Shown: piece by piece, positions 9,280 to 51,138 of the stretch
How positions within the stretch are numbered: the first letter of the stretch is position 1
Layout of the letters: each line of letters opens with the position of its first letter
Source of the DNA: Squalus acanthias
Taxonomy: Eukaryota
Length of the DNA stretch: 64,000 nucleotides
NCBI GenBank assembly: GCA_030390025.1
Contig: CM059432.1
Location: 89,282,001 to 89,346,000, forward strand
Direction: 5' to 3'
Program-made: the position numbers and the translations under genes
Notes under the pieces: generated by a model
Told to the model about the DNA's origin: nothing
The model's input: only the letters and a program-made list of their open reading frames with translations
Database searches by the model: none

Positions 9280-12200
9280 ATAGAGTCATAATGGCACAGA
9301 AGGAGGCCATTCGGCCCATCGAGTCCGTGTCAGCTCTCTGTAGAGAAATCCAGTCAGTCCCATTTCCCCGCTCTATCCCTGTAGCCCTGCAAGTTTATTT
9401 CCCTCAAGTGCCTATCCAGACTCCCTTTTAAAACATTGAGTGTCTCTGCTTCCACCACTTCTGTCGGCAGCGAATTGCAGGTCATCACAATTCGCTGCGT
9501 AAAAAAGTTTTTCCTCGCATCCCCCCTGCATCTCTTGCCCAAAACCTTAAATCTGTGTCCCCTAGTCCTTGTACCATAAACTAGTGGGAACAGCCTTTCC
9601 CCGTCTAGCCTAACCAAACCCGTCATAATCTTGTATACCTCTATCAAATCACCCATCAACCTCCTTTGCTCTAATGAAAACAAATTCAGCTTCTCCAACC
9701 TGTCCTTGTAGCTAAGATCCCCCATCCCCGGAACCATTCTGGTAAATCTCCTCTGCACCATCTCAAGGGCTTTCACATTCTTCCTAATGTGTGGTGACCA
9801 GAACTGGACGCAATACTCCAGTTGTGGCCTAAACAGCGCTTTATAAAGGTTCAGCATAACATCTCTACTTTTGTACTCAATACCTCTATTTATGAAGCCC
9901 AAGATCCCATATGCTTTGTTAACCACTCTCTCAATATGTCCTGCCACCTTCAGGGACCGATGCACATTAACTCCCAGGTCCCTCTGTCCCTGCACACTCT
10001 TTAAAACTGTGCCATTAAGTGTATATTGCCTCTCCCTGTTCCTTCTGCCAAAATGCATCACCTCACACTTCTCCATATTAAATTCCATCTGCCACTTGTC
10101 TGCCAATTCTGCTAGCCTTTCTATGTCCTGTTGCAGTCGATTGGTATCATCATCACTGTTTGCCACCCCAAGTTTGGTGTCATCGGCAGATTTAGAGATT
10201 CTAATCTGTATTCCAATATCCAGGTAATTTATATATATCAAAAAAAGCAGTGGCCCCAGCACTGACCCTTGGGGAACACCACTGTCTACCATCTTCCAGT
10301 CTGTAAAACAGCCATTTACCACAACTCGCTGTTTTCTGTCCTTAAGCCAATTCCTTATCCAAGCTGCCACTGACCCACCTATTCCATGAGCCTCAATTTT
10401 GTTAACCAGCCTTCCCTGTGGTACTTTGTCAAACGCCTTCCGAAAATCCATGTAGACAACATCCATTGCATTCCCTTCATCAATCCTCCCTGTTACTTCA
10501 TCAAAAAATGTAATTAGATTAGTCAAACACGATCTGCCTTTTACAAATCCGTGTTGGCTCTCCTTAATTAGCTTAAACCTCTCCAAGTGCTCGTTAATTT
10601 TTTCCTTGATTATTGTTTCTAAAACTTTACCCACCACTGATGATAAACTGACCGGCCTGTAGTTACTAGGATTGTCCTGACACGCTTTCTTGAACAATGG
10701 TGTCACATTTGCCACTTTCCAATCCTCAGGCACCTCCCCCGCATCTAGGGTAGATTAGAAAATTATGCAAGCCCTTCCACTATCTCCTCCCCCAATTCCC
10801 TTAGCAACCTGGGATGCAAGCCATCTGGACCAGGTGACTTATCCACTCTAAGCATACCCAGTCTTTCTAGTACATCCTGTCTATCAATTTTCACCCCTTT
10901 TCACCACCTTTTTCACTTCTACCGATATTTTGTCAGCATCCACCTCCTTAGTAAACATTGATACAAAGTACTCATCGAGTATTCTAGCCTTTGCCTGCGC
11001 CTCTAAGCATATATCACCTTCTTTGTCTCTAAAAGGCCCCACCCCGCCTCTTACTACCCACTTACTGTTTACATGCCGGTAGAAGATTTTTGGGTTCCCT
11101 TTTATGTTAACCGCCATTCTACTCTCATATTCCCTCTTTGCCAATCTTATTTTCATCTTCACTTCCTTTCTCAACTTATTGTATTTGGTCTGGTTCTCCC
11201 TTGAAGAATTCACCTGACATGCATCATACACCCTCTTTTTTTGTTTCATCATCTTCTCTATCTCCTTCGTCATCCAAGGAGCCCTTGCTTTGGTTCCCTT
11301 ACCCTTCCCTCTTGTTGGAATGTACCTAGCCTGTACTTGGAACATCTCCTCCTTAAAGATCACCCATTGTTCCGTTACAGTTTTTCCTGTCAGTCTTTGG
11401 TTCCATTTTACCCTGGCTAGATCCTTTCGCATCCCATTGAAGTTAGCCCTATTCCAGTTTAGAAGTTCCACTCTAGATTGTTCCTTGCTCCTCTCCATTG
11501 TTAATCTAAATCTTATGCTTCTATGATCACTCGTACCCAAGTGTTCTCCCACAGACACTTGGTCGACCTGGCCCACCGCATTCCCCAGCACCAGATCCAG
11601 CAATGCCTCCTTCCTAGTTGGGCCAAGAACATATTGTTCAAGGAAATTCTCCTGAACACATTTTAGAAATTCCTCCCCCTCCTTTCCCTTTACCCTAGCA
11701 TTATCCCAATCGATATTTGGGTAATTAAAGTCCCCCAATATCACCACTCTATGGGGGAAAAATTCAGTTGGTTTGCACCTCACGTTAGCGCCTTAAGAGG
11801 GCGTTAATGGGGCGCAAAGTAACTAGCGCCGGGGCGCAGCGATATCTGCGCCTCTCGCGAAATTGACCAGACATTTTGCGGCGGCGCTAAAAACTACCGC
11901 CACGATCTCCTGCACCGACAGATCGTGATGTCAGTCGAGTGCGCAACGCCCCGGTAGCGCCCTGGAGTGGATATTGAGTGGCGCCCCTGCCTTACCGCCT
12001 GCCGCTAGCAACGACAGGTTGAGCGGAGCGTTTTGCAGTCAGCAAGGGACTAGGGGAGCGCTATTTAAAGGCGAACGCTTCCTGCCTTTTTTTGTTGGTG
12101 ACATTTTTGCACCACGCATTCAGAGAGAGAGAGAGAGAGACTTCTGGAGAGATTCAACGCTGTGTGAAGGAGTTTTGGGTACTGAGCAGCACTTTGCAGG

Positions 12201-19734: not shown

Positions 19735-20511
19735 CATTGCTAGGGGGATAGAATATAAAAATAGGGAGGTATTGCTTCAGTTGTACAAGGTATTGGTGAG
19801 ACTGCACCTGGAATACTGCATACAGTTTTGGTGTCCTTACTTAAGGAAAGACATCCTTGCTCTCGAGGCAGTGCAAAAAAGGTTCACTCGGTTAATCCCG
19901 GGGATGAGGGGGTGGTCATATGAGGAGAGGTTGGGTAGATTGGGACTCTACTCATTGGAGTTCAGAAGAATGAGAGGCGATCTTATTGAAACATATAAGA
20001 TTGTGAAGGGGTTGGATCGGGTGGATGCGGGGAGGATGTTCCCGATGACGGGTGAGACGAGAACTAGGGGACATAGTCTTAGAATAAGGGGCTGCTCTTT
20101 CAAAACTGAGATGAGGAGGAACTACTTCACTCAGAGGGTGGTAGGTCCATGGAATATGCTGCCACAAAAAGCTGTAGAAGCTACAACATTAATTAAATTT
20201 AAAACAGAAATAGACAGTTTCCTAGAAGTAAAGGGCATTAAGGGTTACGGGGAGCGGGCAGGAATTTGGACATGAGTCTAGGTTCGGATCGGTCATGGCC
20301 CTGTGGGTAGTGGAGCGGGCCCAGGGACTGTGTAGCCTGATTCTGCTCCTATTTTGTGTGTGCAATTCTGTTAGATGCAGGAGATGGTTCTGTGATAGAT
20401 AGTAGATTGGCGGTTAGGATCAGATCAGCCATGATCTTATTGAATGGCGGAGCAGGCTCGAGGGGCCGATTGGCCTACTCCTGCTCCTATTTCTTATGTT
20501 CTTATGTTCTT
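19735..20511 (+). mobile_element. 5'-truncated CR1 with double 3' tail, 9-bp TSD ATTGAAGGA
   Basis: ORF 19727-20275 is a CR1 ORF2 C-terminus. ATTGAAGGA lies at 19726-19734 and 20512-20520. It ends in (ttcttatg)n. Confidence 0.95.
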
Positions 20512-38760: not shown

Positions 38761-39208
38761 GAGGAGAGATTAAGTAGACTAGACCTATATTCCCTAGAGT
38801 TTAGAAGAATGAGAGGTGATCTAATTGAAACATATAAAATTCTTAAGGGGCTTGACAGGGTTAATGCTGAGAAAATGTTTCCCCTGGCTGGGGAGTCTAG
38901 AACACGGGGTCACAGTCACAGAATAAGGGGTCGGCCATTTAGGACTGAGATGAGGAGAAACTTCTTCACTCAGAGAGTGGTGAATCTTTGGAATTGCCTA
39001 CCCCAGAGAGCTGTGGATGCTCAGTTGTTGAGTATATACAAGACAGAGGTCAATAAACTTTTGGGAACTAAGGAAATCAAGGGATATGGGGATAGTGCAG
39101 GAAGGTGGAGTTGAGGTAGAAGATCAGCCATGATCTTATTGAATGGCGGAGCAGGCTCGAAGGGCCAAATGGCCTACTCTGGCTCTTATTTCTTATGTTC
39201 TTATGTTT
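38761..39208 (+). mobile_element. CR1 3' fragment flanked by 95-bp direct repeats
   Basis: ORF 38809-39114 plus tail. 38666-38760 is repeated at 39209-39303. Confidence 0.92.
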
Positions 39209-40797: not shown

Positions 40798-42021
40798 AAT
40801 ATTATTAATGAAATAATCTGTAAGTAACACCAGAGCTACAACAGGTCTAAAGGATCAGATACAGCAAGATAACAGAAAAAAACAATAACAGATAGAAGAT
40901 TTTGCTTTAATTTTCAGTTCATTTTTGCCAGAAAATAACCTTCCCACGGGTGATTGGCTGGTGCCTTGGGGGACTGTCCTTTTACTTTTGGACTGCAGTT
41001 TCAATCTAGTCCAGACTACAAATAAAACTTTCTAGAAGCTTTAAGAGTCTGATAAGAAGTGAACTTGGCCAGTCCCCTTTCTAAGTGGGCCATTCAGGAA
41101 ACAGCCTCAATTTGTTACAAACATTGGTAATCTCACCCCAAGAAGCCATAAAGATGGTTGGTGTAGGAAATGGAAAAATGATCACACTAGTGAGTAGAGG
41201 ATGTTCTTCTGTGATTATGATAAAAAGCACTTTTTGCACTGAAGCAGAGGAAGCTTTATTCTGCAGTTAACTATGCTGTACAAAATTTGGGAGTATTCAA
41301 TGCCAAGGGTAAGATTGAAATTCCTCTTTCCCCCATCCCTTCCCCCAGCCAGGTGATAGTCAGGTGAAGTGCACCCAAAGTGTCCTTCACCTCACATGAC
41401 CTGAACCTGCATGTATTTCCAGGTTATGGTTATAAGCCTAGGCCAGACACATTACCAGCTAAAACAGCCAGACAGACTCATGACAGAGTCTTGAGAGCGC
41501 ATCCAGTGCTTCTACATCAGGAACATCCACAGGAAAACTCCTTTCACAGTCCCTTAACACTATGGCTGTGCTTCTGTCCCATGATCCCACCCAAAATCAG
41601 GCAGAATCACAGTGGCAAATGAGGCCTATTGTCATCTCGCCATCCACCCTATATTTTCCTCCCCCTGTCCCCGCTGGGACTGCTTCTGGCCTCTTCTTCC
41701 CTGTCCAATGCATGTAAGTGACAGCGGGGTGGGGAAAATGGGGCCCAGATCCGCAGGAGGCTTTCCTCCTGTCCATCCATGTTACAGCCACTTCCCAGAG
41801 CCGGTAAACCATGGGAGAACATAAGAACATAAGAACATAAGAAATAGGAGCAGGAGTAGGCCAATCGGCCCCTCGAGCCTGCTCCGCCATTCAATAAGAT
41901 CATGGCTGATCTGATCCTAACCCCAAATCTAAAGAACACAAGAAGTAGGAGCAGGACCCGGCCACTCAGCCCCTGGGCCCGCTCCGCCACCCACAGGGCC
42001 CTGACCGATCCGAACTCAGCC

Positions 42022-44970
42022 TCATGTCCAATTTCCTGCCCGCTCCCCGTAACCCCTAATTCCCTTTACCTCTAGGAAACTATCTATTTCTGTTTTAAAT
42101 TTATTTAATGATGTAGCTTCCACAGCTTCCTGGGGCAGCAAATTCCACAGACCTACTACCCTCTGAGTGAAGAAGTTTCTCCTCATCTCAGTTTTGAAAG
42201 AGCAGCCCCTTATTCTAAGATTATGCCCCCTAGTTCTAGTTTCACCCATCCTTGGGAACATCCTTACCGCATCCACCCGATCAAGCCCCTTCACAATCTT
42301 ATATGTTTCAATAAGATCGCCTCTCATTCTTCTGAACTCCAATGAGTAGAGTCCCAATCTACCCAACGTCTCCTCATATGTCCACCCCCTCATCCCCGGG
42401 ATTAACCGAGTGAACCTTCTTTGTACTGCCTCGAGAGCAAGTATGTCTTTTCTTAAGTATGGACACCAAAACTGTATGCAGTATTCCAGGTGCGGTCTCA
42501 CCAATACCTTATATAACTGCAACAATACCTCCCTGTTTTTATAATCTATCCCCCTAGCAATAAAAGCCAACATTCCATTGGCCTTCTTGATCACCTGCTG
42601 CACCTGCATACTAACTTTTTGATTTTCTTGCACTAGGACCCCCAGATCCCTTTGTACTGCAGTACTTTCCAGTTTCTTGCCATTAAGATAATAACTTGCT
42701 CTCTGATTTTTCCTGCCAAAGTGCATAACCTCACATTTTCCAATATTGTATTGCATCTGCCAAATCTCCGCCCACTCACCCAGCCTGTCTATATCCCCTT
42801 GTAGGTTTTTTATGTCCTGCTCACTTTCTACTTTCCCTCCCATCTATGTATCATCTGCAAACTTTGATATGTTACACTCGGTCCCCTCCTCCAAATCGTT
42901 AATATAGATTGTAAAGAGTTGGGGACCCAGCACCGACCCCTGCGGAACACCACCGGCTACTGGTTGCCAGTCCGAGAATGAACCATTTATCCCAACTCTC
43001 TGCTTCCTGTTAGATAACCAATCCTCCACCCATGCCAGAATATTACCCCCAATCCAGTGATTTTTTATCTTGAGCAATAATCTTTTATGTGGCACCTTGT
43101 CGAATGCCTTCTGGAAGTCTAAATACACTACGTCCACTGGTTCCCCTTTATCCACCCTGTACGTTATGTCCTCAAAGAACTCAAGCAAATTTGTCAGACA
43201 TGACTTCCCCTTCATAAAGCCATGCTGACTTTGTCCTATTAAATTATGTTTATCTAAATGTTCCGTTACTGTCTCCTTAATAATAGACTCCAAAATTTTA
43301 CCCACCACAGATGTTAGGCTAACTGGTCTATAATTTCCAGCCTTCTGCCTACTACCCTTTTTAAATAAGGGTGTTACATTAGCAGTTTTCCAATCTGCCG
43401 GGACCTTTGCTGAGTCCAGGGAATTTTGGAAAATTATTACCAAAGCATCCACAATCCCTACTGCCACTTCCCTCAAGACCCTAGGATGTAAGCCATCAGG
43501 TCCAGGGGATTTATCCGCCTTGAGTCCCATTATTTTACTGAGTACCAATTCCTTAGTGATTTTAATCATATTTAGCTCCTCCCCCCCTAGACCCACCTGT
43601 TTGTCCAGTGTTGGGATATTCTTAGTGTCCTCTACCGTAAAGACTGAAACAAAATATTTGTTCAGCATTTTTGCCATCTCCATGTTTCCCACCATTAATT
43701 TCCCGGTCTCATCCTCTAAGGGACCTACGTTTGCCTTAGCCACCCTTTTTCTTTTTATATAACTATAGAAACTCTTGCTATCTGTTTTTATATTTTTTGC
43801 TAATTTATTTTCATAATCTATCTTCCCTTTCTTAATCAATCCTTTAGTTACTTTTTGCTGTCTTTTGAAGACTTCCCAATCTTCTATCCTCCCACTAAGT
43901 TTGGCTACCTTATATGTCCTTGTTTTTAGTCTGATACTATCCTTAATTTCTTTACTTAGCCACGGATGGCTGTCATTTCTTTTACACCCTTTTTTCCTCA
44001 GTGGAATATATTTCTTTTGAAAGTTGTAAAATAACTCCTTAAATGAACACCACTGCTCATGTACCGTCTTACGCTTTAATCTATTTTCCCAGTGCACTTT
44101 AATCAATTCCGTTCTCATACCATCATAGTCTCCTTTATTCAAGCTCAGTACGCTTGTTTGAGAACCAACCTTCTCACCCTCTAATTGGATATGGAATTCA
44201 ACCATGTTATGGTCACTCATTCCAAGGGGATCCTTAACTAGGACATTATTAATTAATCCTGACTCATTACACAGGACTAGGTCCAAGGTTGCTTGCCCCC
44301 TTGTAGGATCAGTTACATACTGCTCAAGAAATCCATCCCTAATACACTCAATAAACTCTTCCTCAAGGCTGCCCTGCCCAATTTGATTTGTCCAGTTAAT
44401 ATGATAGTTAAAATCCCCCATAATTATAGCTGTTCCCTTATTACATGCCCCAACTATTTCCTGATTAATACTTCTTCCAGCAGAGTTGCAACTATTAGGA
44501 GGCCTATATACTACTCCCACTAGTGTTTTTTTCCCCTTATTATTCCTTATCTCCACCCAAACTGTTTCATTATCCTGATCCTTTGACCCAATATCATTTC
44601 TCTGTATTACAGTGATTCCTTCCTTTATTAAAATAGCCACCCCACCTCCCCTTCCTTCCTGCCTGTCCTTCCTGATTGTTAAATACCCTGGCATATTTAG
44701 TTCCCAGTCGTTGTCACCCTGCAGCCATGTTTCTGTAATGGCCACAAGATCATACCCATACGTAGTTATTTGTGCCGTTAACTCGTCCATTTTGTTACGA
44801 ATGCTACGTGCATTTAGATAAAGAACTTTCAAATATGTTTTGTGACACTTAGTTCCTGCTTTTTCCTTTTTTAACACTTTACCTTTTACTCCATACCTTC
44901 TGTCCCTTCCTGACACGCTTTCCTCTGTCTCCCTGCTCAGGTGCCCAACCCCCTGCCACTTCAGTTTAAA
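42022..44970 (-). pseudogene. CR1 ORF2 (AP endonuclease plus reverse transcriptase), one premature TAG at 42844-42846
   Basis: YLNARS, AITETW, GVVYRPP, GDFN, LDLVL, SDH, QHGF, DFQKAFD, GVPQGS and FADDT*MGG. The two ORF-track segments are in the same frame. Confidence 0.95.
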
Positions 44971-45911
44971 CCCTCCCCAACAGCACAAGCAAACACTCCC
45001 CCTAGGACAGCGGTCCCGGCCCTGCCCAGGTGCAGACCGTCCGGTTTGTACTGGTCCCACCTCCCCCAGAACCGGTTCCAATGTCCCAGGAATTTGAATC
45101 CCTCCCTCTTGCACCATTCCTCTAGCCACATATTCATTTGAAATATCCTTCTATTTCTACTCTGACTAGCACGTGGCACTGGTAGCAATCCTGAGATTAC
45201 TACCTTTGAGGTCCTATTTTTTAATTTACCTCCTAACTCCCTATATTCTGCTTTTAGGACCTCATCCCCTTTTTTACCTATATCGTTGGTGCCTATGTGC
45301 ACCACGACAGCTGGCTGTTCGCCCTCCCCCTCCAAAATGTTCTGTAGCCGCTCTGAGACGTCCTTGACCCTTGCACCAGGGAGGCAACACACCATCCTGG
45401 AGTCTCGGTTGCGGCCGCAGAAACGCCTATCTATTCCCCTTACAATTGAGTCCCCTATCACTATAGCTCTTCCACTCTTTTTCCTCCCAGCCTGTGCAGC
45501 AGAGCCACCCATGGTGCCAGGAAGTTGGCTGCTGCTGCCTTCCCCTGATAAGTCATCCCCCCCAACAGTATTCAAAGTGGTATATCTGTTTGAGAGGGGG
45601 ATGTCCACAGGGGACCCCTGCACTACCTGCCTGCACCTCTTACTCTGCCTGGTGGTCACCCATTTACTTCCTGCCTGTACACCCTTTGCCTGCGGTGTGA
45701 CCAACTCGCTAAACGTGCTATTCACGAGGTTCTCAGCATCGCGAATGCTCCAATACGCATCCAATCGCAGCTCCAGCGCCGTAATGCGGTCTGCCAGTAG
45801 CTGTAGCTGGATACACTTCCCGCACACATGGTTGTCAAGGACACCGGAAGGGTCCCTGATTTCCCACATAGCACAGGAGGAGCATACCACGGGGCCGAGC
45901 TCTCCTGCCAT
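44961..45911 (-). CDS. CR1 ORF1p (316 aa): N-terminal Cys cluster, coiled coil, SGNH esterase
   Basis: CSSC...[34 protein letters not shown] and DGLHL, with no interruption. Confidence 0.92.
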
Positions 45912-46172
45912 GACTTACCCTTTAATTAATTCAAATTAAATTAAAACAAATCAATCCCACCAATTGCACTACAGTTAAATGATATACTTAAGGGCCCTGG
46001 TTTACCAACAGTCCCCGCTACACCACAGAGAGCTTAGAAACTATAAACCACAGAGTTTAAGTTTAAAAAGAGAGAAATACTCACCAACCAATCACTTACC
46101 TGCTTTCTGGTGACGTCACACTTCGATTACTTTTTACTTTTCTCCCTCCGAGCTCGGAGATTGGTAAGCCTA

Positions 46173-46318
46173 CCTGGTCTCTGCCACCTCTTAAACCTCG
46201 CCGCCGCCGCCTGGTTCCCCGCAGGTCCGCCGCCGCTCTGAGGCCTACGTGGTCTCTGCCACCTCTTAAACCTCGCCACTGCCGCCGCCGCCGCCTGGTT
46301 CCTTGCAGGTCCGCCGCC
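46173..46318 (-). repeat. Two ~75-bp tandem units in the CR1 5' UTR
   Basis: tggtctctgccacctcttaaacctcgcc(gcc)n tggttcc..gcaggtccgccgcc occurs twice. Confidence 0.85.
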
Positions 46319-46804
46319 TACCAAGGTACAGATTTTCTGACATTCGAGTTATTTATGCCCCTCTAACTGCTTGGCCATTTCTTTGAGTGCTGTAGTGGTG
46401 GCTCCACTGTAGCACTGCTGGGATCTTATGGCCGGCCAATGGCAGGCTCCCTTCAGGCAGTGGGTTTCAGCAATGTTAGAGCGGTGGGCAGAAGTCTTGT
46501 CCCACTAGAACAATGCCACTGGGAGGCCAATCCTGGCTAATGTCTTCACTGCCACCTTCCTAAGAGCAGCATTTGTTGCACACATGTAACATTTCTATTT
46601 CCCACATCAAATATTCTGGCATGTTCTGAGTGAAATGGTCAATTGGGTGGCCGATTTTTGCATATATATATATGGGCAATTTATGCCAACTTTGTTCTAG
46701 TTAATGCCAGATAATGGTAATGCATTCTGATCCACTAGGAACAGTATTAGGACTGCCCACATTTATTTCACTTAGGATTTTCACAGCTGGCAGAGTAAGA
46801 AGAC

Positions 46805-47265
46805 ATCCATTGCCGTACACGGAGCAGGTAAACGACCTCTCCCCGGTGTGGATGCGCTGGTGCCTCAGCAGGTAGGATGAGCAGGTGAATCCCTTCCTGC
46901 AGGCGGAGCAGGTGAAGGGCTTCTCCCCAGTGTGCATCTGCCGGTGGGTCAGCAGGTTGGCGGAGCGGTTGAAACCCTTCCGGACAGGCGTATAGCCTCT
47001 CGCAGGTGTGGACCCTTTGGTGCACCAGCAGGTAGGAGGAGCGGGTGAATCCCTTCCCATAGGCCAGGAAGGTGAAGGGCCACTTCCCAGTCTGGATGTG
47101 CCAGTGGGTCAGCAGGTGGGATGAGTGGGAGAATCCCTTCCTGCAGGCCGGGCAGGTGAAGGGCATCTCCCTGTTGTGCTTCCGCCAGTGGGTCAGGAGG
47201 TGGGAGGCGTGGGTGAACCCTTGCCCGCACTTGGAGCAGACCAGTGACCCCTCCTCCTCGTCTGC
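46805..47265 (-). pseudogene. Degenerate tandem C2H2 zinc-finger array (about 5 fingers plus a truncated one)
   Basis: CSKCGQGFTHASHLLTH, CPACRKGFSHSSHLLTH and HTGEKPFTCSACRKGFTCSSYLLRHQRIHTGER. There is a frameshift near 46985, and several Cys/His ligands are lost. Confidence 0.85.
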
Positions 47266-47632
47266 GTGGACCCGCTTAGAACCAAAAGCCCCCCTTTCCC
47301 CATCCCGTCCTCCCTCACCTCGCTACTCCCCGCTGTGTTTTTTTCAGTCTGTATAACTGCTCGAAGCTCGATCTATCCACACAGTCAGCGCACTGGGACA
47401 TTCTCATTCCGTCGGTTGTGTGTGTGTGTGTCTGTCTCAGTGATTTTCCAGCCACACTGATGCTTCAAACCTTTTGTTACCCCACAGATGCAACACACAA
47501 ACACTTCTGCTTCTGCCTGCAAAGGCCAATGATGTTCAGGTTTCCGATGATTCGAGCTACGCCATCAGACCATACGTGTTGTTTGGCTGGTTTTCTTGTC
47601 AGCAAAAATGCTCCAATCTAAAACCCTTTAGG

Positions 47633-48820: not shown

Positions 48821-51138
48821 CATAAGAACATAAGAAATAGGAGCAGGAGTAGGCCATTCAGCCCCTCGAGCCTGCTCCGCCATTCAATAAGATCATGGCT
48901 GATCTGATCTTGGCCTCAACTCCACTTTCCTGCACGCTGCCCATAACCCTTGATTCCCCTGTTTTTCAAAAATCTGTCTATCTCCGCCTTGAATATATTC
49001 AATGACTTAGCCTCCACAGCTCTCTGGGGTAGAGAATTCCAAAGATTCACGACCCTCTGAGAGAAGAAATTCCTCCTCATCTCCGTTTTAAATGGGCGAC
49101 CCCTTATTCTGAAACTATGTCCCCTAGTTCTAGATTCCCCCACAAGGGGAAACATCCTCCCTGCATCTACCCTGTCAAGCCCCCTCAGAATCTTAAATGT
49201 TTCAATAAGATCACCTCTCATTCTTCTAAACTCCAATGAGTATAGGCCCAACCTGCTCAACCTTTCCTTATAAGACAACCCCTTCAACTCAGGAATCAAC
49301 CTAGTGAACCTTCTCTGAACTGCCTCCAATGCAAGTATATCCTTCCTTAAATAAGGAGACCAAAACTGTATGCAGTACTCCAGGTGTGGTCTCACCAACG
49401 CCCTGTACAGTTGTAGCAAGACTTCCCTACTTTTATACTCCATCCCCCTTGCAATAAAGGTCAATATTCCACTTGCCTTCCTAATTACTTGCTGTACCTG
49501 CATGCTAACTTTTTGTGTTTCATGTACGAGGACATCCAGATCCCTCTGTACTCTGTAGTCTCTCTCCATTTAAATTATATTTTGCTTTTTTATTCTTCCT
49601 ACCAAAGTGGATAACCTCACATTTTCCCACATTATACTCCATCTACCAAATTTTTGCCCACTCACTTAACCTATCTATATCCCTTTGCAGACTCTTTGTG
49701 TATTCCTCACAAATTGCTTTCCCATCTATCTTTGTATTGTCAGCAAATTTGGCAACAGTACACACGGTCCCTTCATCCAAGCCATTAATATAGATTGTAA
49801 ATAGTTGAGGCCCCAGCACTGATCCCTGTGGCACTCCACTAGTTACAGTTTGCCAACCTGAAAATGACCCATTTATTACAACTTTCTGTTTTCTGTTAGT
49901 TAGCCAATCCTCTATCCAGTCTAATATATTACCCCCAACACCGTGAGCTCTTATCTTGTGCAGTAACCTTTTATGCGGCACCTTATCGAATGCCTTCTGG
50001 AAATCCAAATAAACTACATCTACTGGTTCCAATTTATCCTCAAAGAACTCTAGTAAATTTGTCAAACACGATTTCCCTTTCATAAAACCATGTTGACTCT
50101 GCTTGATTGCATTATGATTTTCTAAATGTCCTGCTATTACTTCCTTAATAATGGATTCCAGCATTTTCCCAATGACAGGTGTTAGGCTAACTGGCCTATA
50201 GTTTCCTGCTTTCTGTCTCCCTCCTTTCTTGAATAGGGGAGTTACATTTGCGGTTTTCCAATCCGCTGGGATCTCTCCAGAATCCAGGGAATTTTGGTAG
50301 ATTACAACCAATGCATCCACTATCTCTGCAGCCACTTCTTTTAAAACCCTTTAAAAAGGATGCAGGCCATCAGGTCCAGGGGACTTGTCAGCCTTTAGTT
50401 CCATTAGTTTGCCTAGTACTTTTTCTCTACTGATGGTGATTGTTTTAAGTTCCTCCCTCCCTATAACCCCTTGATTATCAATTATTATTGGAATGCTTTT
50501 AGTGTCTTCTACCATGAAGACTGATACAAAATATTTGTTCAAGGTCTCTATCATTTCCCTGTTTCCCATTATTAATTCCCCAGTCTCATCCTCTAAGGGA
50601 CCAACGTTTACTTTAGCTACTCTCTTCCTTTTTATATACCTGTAGAAGCTCTTACTGTCTGTTTTTATATTTTTAGCTAGTTTGCTCTCATAATTTATCT
50701 TCTCCCTCATTATTATTTTTTTAGTCATCCTTTGCTGGTTTCTAAAAATGTCCCAATCCTCTGGCCTACCACTAATCTTTGCAACATTGTATGCCTTTTC
50801 TTCAATTTGATACCATCCTTAACTTCCTTAATTAGCCACAGATGGTTCATCCTTCTTGTACAGTCTTTCTTTCTCACTGGATAAACCTTTGCTGAGAGTT
50901 ATGAAATATCTCCTTAAATGTCTGCCACTGCTTATCTACCGTCTTACACTTTAATCTATTTTCCCAGTCCACTTTAGCCAACTCTGTTTTCATACCTTTG
51001 TAATTGCCTTTATTTAAGTTTAGGACACTAGTTTCAGACACAAGTTTCTCACCCTCAAACAGAATTTGAAACGCATTCATGCTATGATCACTCTTCCCTA
51101 GAGGATCCTTTGCAATGAGATCATTAATTAATCCTGTC
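48821..51138 (-). mobile_element. 5'-truncated CR1 LINE, 6-bp TSD ATGGTA
   Basis: Frameshifted ORF2 pieces from 48916 to 51138. ATGGTA lies at 48815-48820 and 51139-51144. Confidence 0.93.

Follow-up and report, generated by a model that had tools for sequence, protein, structure and literature searches.

The translation of LINE ORF2 has been called an open and important question (PMC3894237), and the accessible parts of the reviews describe reinitiation, not frameshifting. Human L1 and silkworm SART1 have a bicistronic mRNA in which ORF2 depends on translation of ORF1 (PMC2881922, PMC3894237, PMC3708506). These elements reinitiate and yield a separate ORF2p, whereas in the CR1 element described here the two frames overlap at a heptamer and ORF2 often has no usable AUG. 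Frameshifting has been reported in other non-LTR elements: the APE-type Dictyostelium elements TRE5-A and TRE3-A both require a -1 frameshift for ORF2 (PMC5911963, figure legend), although these are amoeba elements of another lineage, and a +1 frameshift has been suggested for Paramecium LINEs. The term 'frameshift' is absent from the accessible part of PMC3159450. It is also absent from the corresponding part of the paper on ZfL2-1 (PDB 4c1b; PMC3905857), whose ORF1 is an SGNH esterase as in the CR1 element.

In retroviral gag-pol and nidovirus ORF1a/1b, as in CR1, an X_XXY_YYZ site stands at the end of the first ORF and the polymerase follows in the -1 frame; PMC5009743 counts U_UUA_AAC and G_GGA_AAC with the heptamers most prone to slippage. 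The CR1 junction differs from these viral sites in belonging to a non-LTR element and in having an unstructured G5 run instead of a conserved 3' pseudoknot or hairpin, neither of which was found (pseudoknots lie outside the folding model used). A short motif also serves the -2/-1 signal of PRRSV nsp2, which has a 10-nt spacer, works over 9-11 nt and is bound in trans by nsp1beta and PCBP (PMC4937337). The CR1 G5 run shares the 10-nt spacing, but the PRRSV motif is C-rich and that of CR1 G-rich, and the likeness is one of analogy only.

CR1 ranks first in abundance among the repeats of the chicken genome (PMC11835228). Frameshifting in CR1 did not turn up in our literature search, whose scope excluded the 1997 chicken and turtle CR1 papers, Kapitonov and Jurka 2003 and the Repbase notes; these could mention it. 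Here, we analyze a CR1 copy in a 64,000-nt stretch of the Squalus acanthias genome (the window) and find that the signal at its ORF1-ORF2 junction is real, deeply conserved and far beyond chance. Judged from sequence and its conservation, ORF2 of this CR1 LINE is likely to be made by programmed -1 ribosomal frameshifting at U_UUA_AAC, which would give an esterase-endonuclease-reverse transcriptase (RT) fusion of about 1,300 residues beside free ORF1p. This analysis adds a count across the genome, the G5 run at fixed spacing and the xGN clade, and it rejects pairing both local and long-range.

Results

The element is listed with its parts in Table 1. A sister copy (L212) is 98.6% identical to the window copy over 41821-46241, and its ORF2 is open for 982 codons counted from the heptamer; in the window copy, a single in-frame stop (42846-42844) interrupts the RT part of ORF2. 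The ORF1 profile matches PDB 4c1b, a solved LINE ORF1 esterase, with an E value of 4e-46, and the closest named homolog comes from a sawshark (77%). Short tandem repeats at the 3' end and frequent 5' truncation are the mark of CR1; in this element the end of ORF2 precedes 8-nt tail repeats, and the 5' ends of the sister copies vary through 5' truncation. Membership in the CR1 clade is judged from architecture and from bird ORF1 homologs rather than from an RT phylogeny; a place in CR1 and not L2 is suggested indirectly by the presence of ORF1 homologs in birds, in which the LINEs belong to CR1, R2 and RTE (PMC11835228). The 5' UTR contains splice-donor-like motifs at 46099, 46084 and 45918 (-), one of them immediately before the ORF1 ATG, and near 46041 there are also a pyrimidine tract and an AG. 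Of the 15 sister copies that span the stretch, none has cleanly lost about 60 nt of this UTR.

Table 1 Features of the CR1 copy (positions in the window)
Feature	Position	Strand	Evidence
Near full-length, young CR1-type LINE copy	41816..46318	(-)	Sister copies match up to 46318; 3' repeats
5' UTR, two similar units of ~70-80 nt each	46168..46318	(-)	Self-matches 46318-46243 and 46234-46168
ORF1, 316 aa, Cys-rich N-terminus and SGNH esterase, C-terminal Leu-Asn-stop	44961..45911	(-)	Lipase_GDSL_2, E 1e-13
Slippery heptamer U_UUA_AAC, X_XXY_YYZ phase relative to ORF1	44964..44970	(-)	Sequence and conservation
ORF1 stop directly 3' of heptamer, TGA in window copy	44961..44963	(-)	
Conserved G5 run, 10 nt 3' of heptamer, candidate 3' stimulatory element	44949..44953	(-)	
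Linker, 50 codons, without Met, open in -1 frame	44821..44970	(-)	
ORF2 in -1 frame, APE endonuclease and reverse transcriptase	42022..44970	(-)	Exo_endo_phos, RVT_1
First in-frame ATG of ORF2, 10 codons past start of first endonuclease motif	44788..44790	(-)	
3' tail, 8-nt repeats, 3.5 copies	41816..41843	(-)	

A preliminary description of this DNA had placed a slippery heptamer in frameshift phase directly before the ORF1 stop, and the minus-strand sequence confirms it: ORF1 ends GAG GGT TTA AAC TGA, with the heptamer at 44970-44964 and the stop at 44963-44961. ORF2 lies in the -1 frame as described, reading FKLKWQG...YLNARS...MDE from 44970, and its first Met does fall past the YLNARS motif (in-frame ATG at 44790 vs motif at 44820-44803). 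The statement that no AUG occurs between the ORF1 stop and YLNARS is right for the ORF2 frame but not for the linker as a whole, which has ATGs at 44894 and 44813, both in the ORF1 frame. A -1-frame ATG 147 nt upstream of the heptamer can be reached in the window copy only through the loss of a -1-frame TAG six codons upstream; the other 29 of 30 sister loci retain this TAG. Being private to the window copy, the ATG was rejected as a general ORF2 start. The bare 10-mer is seen once in the 64 kb against 0.82 expected by chance, and its significance therefore rests on position and conservation, not on the word itself.

Constraint at the nucleotide level was evaluated in 24 representatives (13 lineages of this genome and 11 metagenome loci), which were picked after their junctions had been seen and are related by descent. 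The final Leu codon is TTA in 24/24 (background 12 of 153 Leu codons) and the final Asn codon AAC in 24/24 (background 25/66), whereas each further conserved column of Leu, Asn or Gly draws on two to six codons. T is the last letter of the codon before Leu-Asn (LN) in 23/24 (background 23%), whether that codon specifies Ala, Gly, His, Cys, Tyr or Ser; the sole exception reads G_UUA_AAC (L092), and PMC5009743 lists G_UU(A) for equine arteritis virus. Synonymous identity reaches 1.00 at LN vs 0.49 over the last 150 ORF1 codons. Since these codons are invariant despite free synonymous sites elsewhere, the constraint acts on the nucleotides and not on the protein. The stop that follows the heptamer varies (TAG 14, TAA 8, TGA 2). 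A tandem G_GGU_UUA slip site was rejected as a general feature, as it exists only where the preceding codon is GGT (6/24).

Within the genome, the heptamer is present in 30/30 of the best sister copies of the window's own subfamily, five of which have TAA replacing TGA, and in 30/30, 30/30 and 20/20 copies of three other young lineages found with protein queries; in the first of these, 2/30 copies are out of phase through an upstream length change. For a count free of circularity we anchored the search on the DGLHL codons upstream of the junction, a pattern that excludes the window's own subfamily, and obtained 22,884 matches genome-wide vs 1,275 for the control; CR1 ORF1 copies in this genome number in the tens of thousands. 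A blind sample of 50 loci, composed of the first 30 of the anchor list and 20 of the next 70 with the junction unseen, had the exact heptamer in 34, one letter changed in 8, two changed in 4 and no heptamer in 4, at least one of these last four not being an ORF1. Genome-wide, ORF1 ends with Leu-Asn-stop at the canonical spacing read exactly T TTA AAC in 11,683 of 12,574 cases, counted with a stop pattern, TRR, that also admits TGG. No RNA run was listed as a carrier of the sequence. Contigs of four sequencing runs from four organisms, weak evidence given their uncertain RNA status, carry TGA>TAA at 44962; none of the 40 differences listed (of 326) hits the heptamer and none of the 15 joints listed (of 16) spans the junction. 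A query with a distant esterase retrieved only lineage E among the 20 loci fetched from this genome. In this lineage (L295-L314) the copies differ in the length of a G run immediately 5' of the heptamer, which shifts the ORF1 phase in 11/20.

The site extends to other hosts. Scanning metagenomes yielded 53 loci of host DNA that share about 25-50% protein identity, and 21 of them reach the ORF1 end: 15 read T TTA AAC plus a stop, one G TTA AAC, and two are one letter off, the remaining three forming a distant group without the site. Full-length ORF1 homologs (140 of 186 proteins reach the ORF1 end) terminate in LN in 101 cases, in GN in 14 and otherwise in 25, and the named LN-ending proteins come from sharks, rays, coelacanth, frogs, turtles, squamates and birds. 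In 99/101 the residue preceding LN has a codon with a final T (background 79%). Before GN, a final G is possible in 14/14 and a final T impossible in 11/14; on this protein-level reading, the xGN residues are always compatible with G_GGA_AAC. The GN ends count as one event, since they form one group on a 72-row tree built from all sufficiently long non-LN rows and 35 sampled LN rows. DNA for the xGN clade was not found in the viral or prokaryotic collections, and a candidate (L234) proved to be unrelated phage. The ORF1 ends in the group P0097, P0107 and P0126-P0165 and in P0109, P0110, P0124, P0129, P0130, P0137 and P0170 read xGN, FFR, GFLG, MFF or LGF, ends that, judged from protein, other slippery heptamers could encode; in the same clade, those reading CRG, VSR and VGR fit no heptamer. 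Longer fused homologs gave two matches, one a ray gene model reading esterase-GGFKLDVQG-endonuclease; this model is probably a copy with an indel, and hence no proof of fusion. One CR1 ORF1 homolog at 61% identity (P0007) bears the source label Pseudomonas aeruginosa, likely host contamination.

An endonuclease motif was found in 19 of the 24 representatives, and it lies in the -1 frame in 19/19, after a linker of 37-76 codons. Over 988 linker codons there are 5 stops in the -1 frame, 68 in the 0 frame and 89 in the +1 frame. The -1 frame is closed within six codons upstream of the heptamer in 13/19, and thus opens at the heptamer. No Met precedes the endonuclease in 7/19, and the other 12/19 have a linker Met at scattered positions, including codon 3-4 in four (lineage K of this genome and three bird-like loci, L098, L100 and L110). 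In lineages A, B and D, which have an intact ORF2, the first Met stands at codon 60, 166 and 255 vs an endonuclease motif at 50, 45 and 52. An AUG overlapping or near the ORF1 stop is absent in the window subfamily, and one within four codons occurs in only 4/19 representatives. The preliminary description had tied a frameshift to conservation of the heptamer, its phase and the -1 offset, and to the lack of an in-frame AUG or splice acceptor supplying ORF2; the first three are conserved across these junctions, and neither a conserved in-frame AUG nor a conserved acceptor was seen in them.

The search for a stimulator separated sequence from structure. The G-rich block that the preliminary description had offered for this role is indeed conserved, as a G5 run at 10-nt spacing, but its proposed CAGG/CCUG hairpin is no stabler than shuffles in the window (z 0.55) and the hairpin part of the idea is unsupported. 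Folding over 60 nt gave z <= -2 in only 3/24 representatives, and neither local folds nor a scan for long-range partners found a conserved 3' RNA structure 5-9 nt downstream. In a set of 26 cluster representatives, for 25 of which the exact heptamer served as the anchor, G occupies positions +11 to +15 3' of the heptamer in 25, 25, 25, 23 and 24, respectively, with variable flanks. A G5 run starts at +8 to +12 in 23/26 vs 6 such runs in 4,477 nt further downstream, and three of its five Gs are dispensable for the ORF2 Gly codon. A G-quadruplex was rejected: G4Hunter scores span 0.64-2.2 across lineages, and because intact lineage D scores 0.64 the structure is not general.

The long-range helix scan covered 64 upstream and 122 downstream aligned windows, the latter within the first kilobase or so of ORF2, and drew attention to the CCLPGA codons of ORF1, some 420 nt upstream (mean -17.7 vs -7.8 +/- 2.4 kcal/mol). 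This partner was rejected, as covariation failed (cognate pairs were no better than swapped pairs, p 0.78) and there was no synonymous peak (0.41-0.47 vs 0.49) once 7 frame-broken clusters and one mis-anchored copy had been dropped. Against synonymous shuffles, the real CCLPGA codons did better in 16 of the 19 related lineages tested (mean z -1.0), an effect both weak and post hoc, and a looser scan of the whole element for a pairing partner found no shared site.

Discussion

Under the proposed mechanism, most ribosomes would stop after the heptamer and release abundant free ORF1p, and a minority would slip back one base with the Leu and Asn tRNAs on U_UUA_AAC and go on to make the esterase-endonuclease-RT fusion of about 1,300 aa. 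The candidate stimulator is the fixed-spacing G5 run rather than a local hairpin, a weaker part of the proposal, and equally weak is its most likely role, as the binding site of a protein that would block the mRNA entry channel. Slow termination at the adjacent stop may also help slippage. Because local and long-range pairing are unsupported, a trans-acting binder or slow termination is favoured. Counting against frameshifting are the linker Met in 12/19 representatives, the lack of a conserved RNA structure at these junctions where most known -1 sites have one, and the 25/140 ORF1 ends that are neither LN nor GN.

Termination-reinitiation is the accepted route in other LINEs (PMC2881922; PMC3894237), and ORF2 of L1 can be translated without its AUG (PMC5009743). 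A ribosome that, in the manner of L1 or SART1, stopped at the ORF1 end and restarted at a non-AUG codon or at an AUG close by would give free ORF2p, the conserved letters then being a reinitiation signal. With a linker Met in 12/19 representatives, this route is open to those lineages, and lineage K, L098, L100 and L110 even have an in-frame ATG 3-4 codons 3' of the heptamer. It would have to do without any Met before the endonuclease in the other seven, with a first Met as late as codon 255 in one intact lineage, and with a codon after AAA that in most lineages is CTA, a poor start. Reinitiation also leaves the exact X_XXY_YYZ phase, the invariant -1 offset and the G_UUA_AAC variant unexplained, and we regard it as unlikely for CR1.

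The two further accounts we rate lower still. Reframing of the RNA, through splicing or polymerase slippage that brings ORF2 in frame with ORF1, has in its favour an AG at +10/+11 in about 16/26 representatives, the donor-like motifs of the 5' UTR, and G runs adjoining the heptamer that vary among copies (11/20 of lineage E, for example). Yet the junction lacks a pyrimidine tract and a conserved acceptor, no ATG precedes the first donor-like motif in the 5' UTR, the heptamer is general where the G run upstream of it is lineage-specific, and the -1 offset is kept in master elements, which together make this account very improbable. The heptamer could also be a by-product of shared ancestry and of a need of ORF1p for a C-terminal Leu-Asn; N316 is invariant in the alignment and L315 nearly so, and the lineages are related by descent. 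The codon data of the 24 representatives largely refute it: the codons never vary although Leu could use six and Asn two, and the T persists across six preceding amino acids. Related esterases end differently (xGN, FFR, VCS), and protein constraint supplies no route to ORF2; we give it hardly any credence.

Programmed -1 frameshifting, if true, would give CR1 a gag-pol-like fusion that ties the esterase to the RT and sets the ORF1p:ORF2p ratio, and would move the annotated ORF2 start. A -1 signal consisting of a heptamer, a stop and an unstructured G run would, if true, also be an unusual type of stimulator. More tentatively, and with the odds against it, esterase-type LINEs might generally fuse ORF1 and ORF2 by recoding, with a -1 frameshift in vertebrate CR1 switched on in trans by a G5-bound protein, G_GGA_AAC in a distant clade and UGA-C readthrough in another. 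If so, the G5-dependent CR1 signal would be a cellular counterpart of the PRRSV signal.

Two distant esterase LINEs have no heptamer, their ORF1 ending TGA CTG (L135 about 1686, L128 about 740). In L135 the ORF1 frame runs on for 187 open codons beyond the stop and reaches into the endonuclease motif, as UGA-C readthrough would require; a Met at codons 72 and 88 and an ATG overlapping the stop are alternatives there.

Other features of the window

Immediately upstream of the element, C2H2 zinc-finger-like reading frames with breaks occupy 46701-47322 (-). Other LINE fragments of differing age and type lie at 48824-51136, 19736-20510, 1411-2594, 38798-39207 and 9788-10762. A second, older CR1 copy at 14036-12700 (-), with an ORF1 identity of 65%, has a junction at 13173-13164 that reads C TTA AAC TAG, followed by the same G5 run. 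Its C is likely to be decay, judged by the T that close relatives carry.
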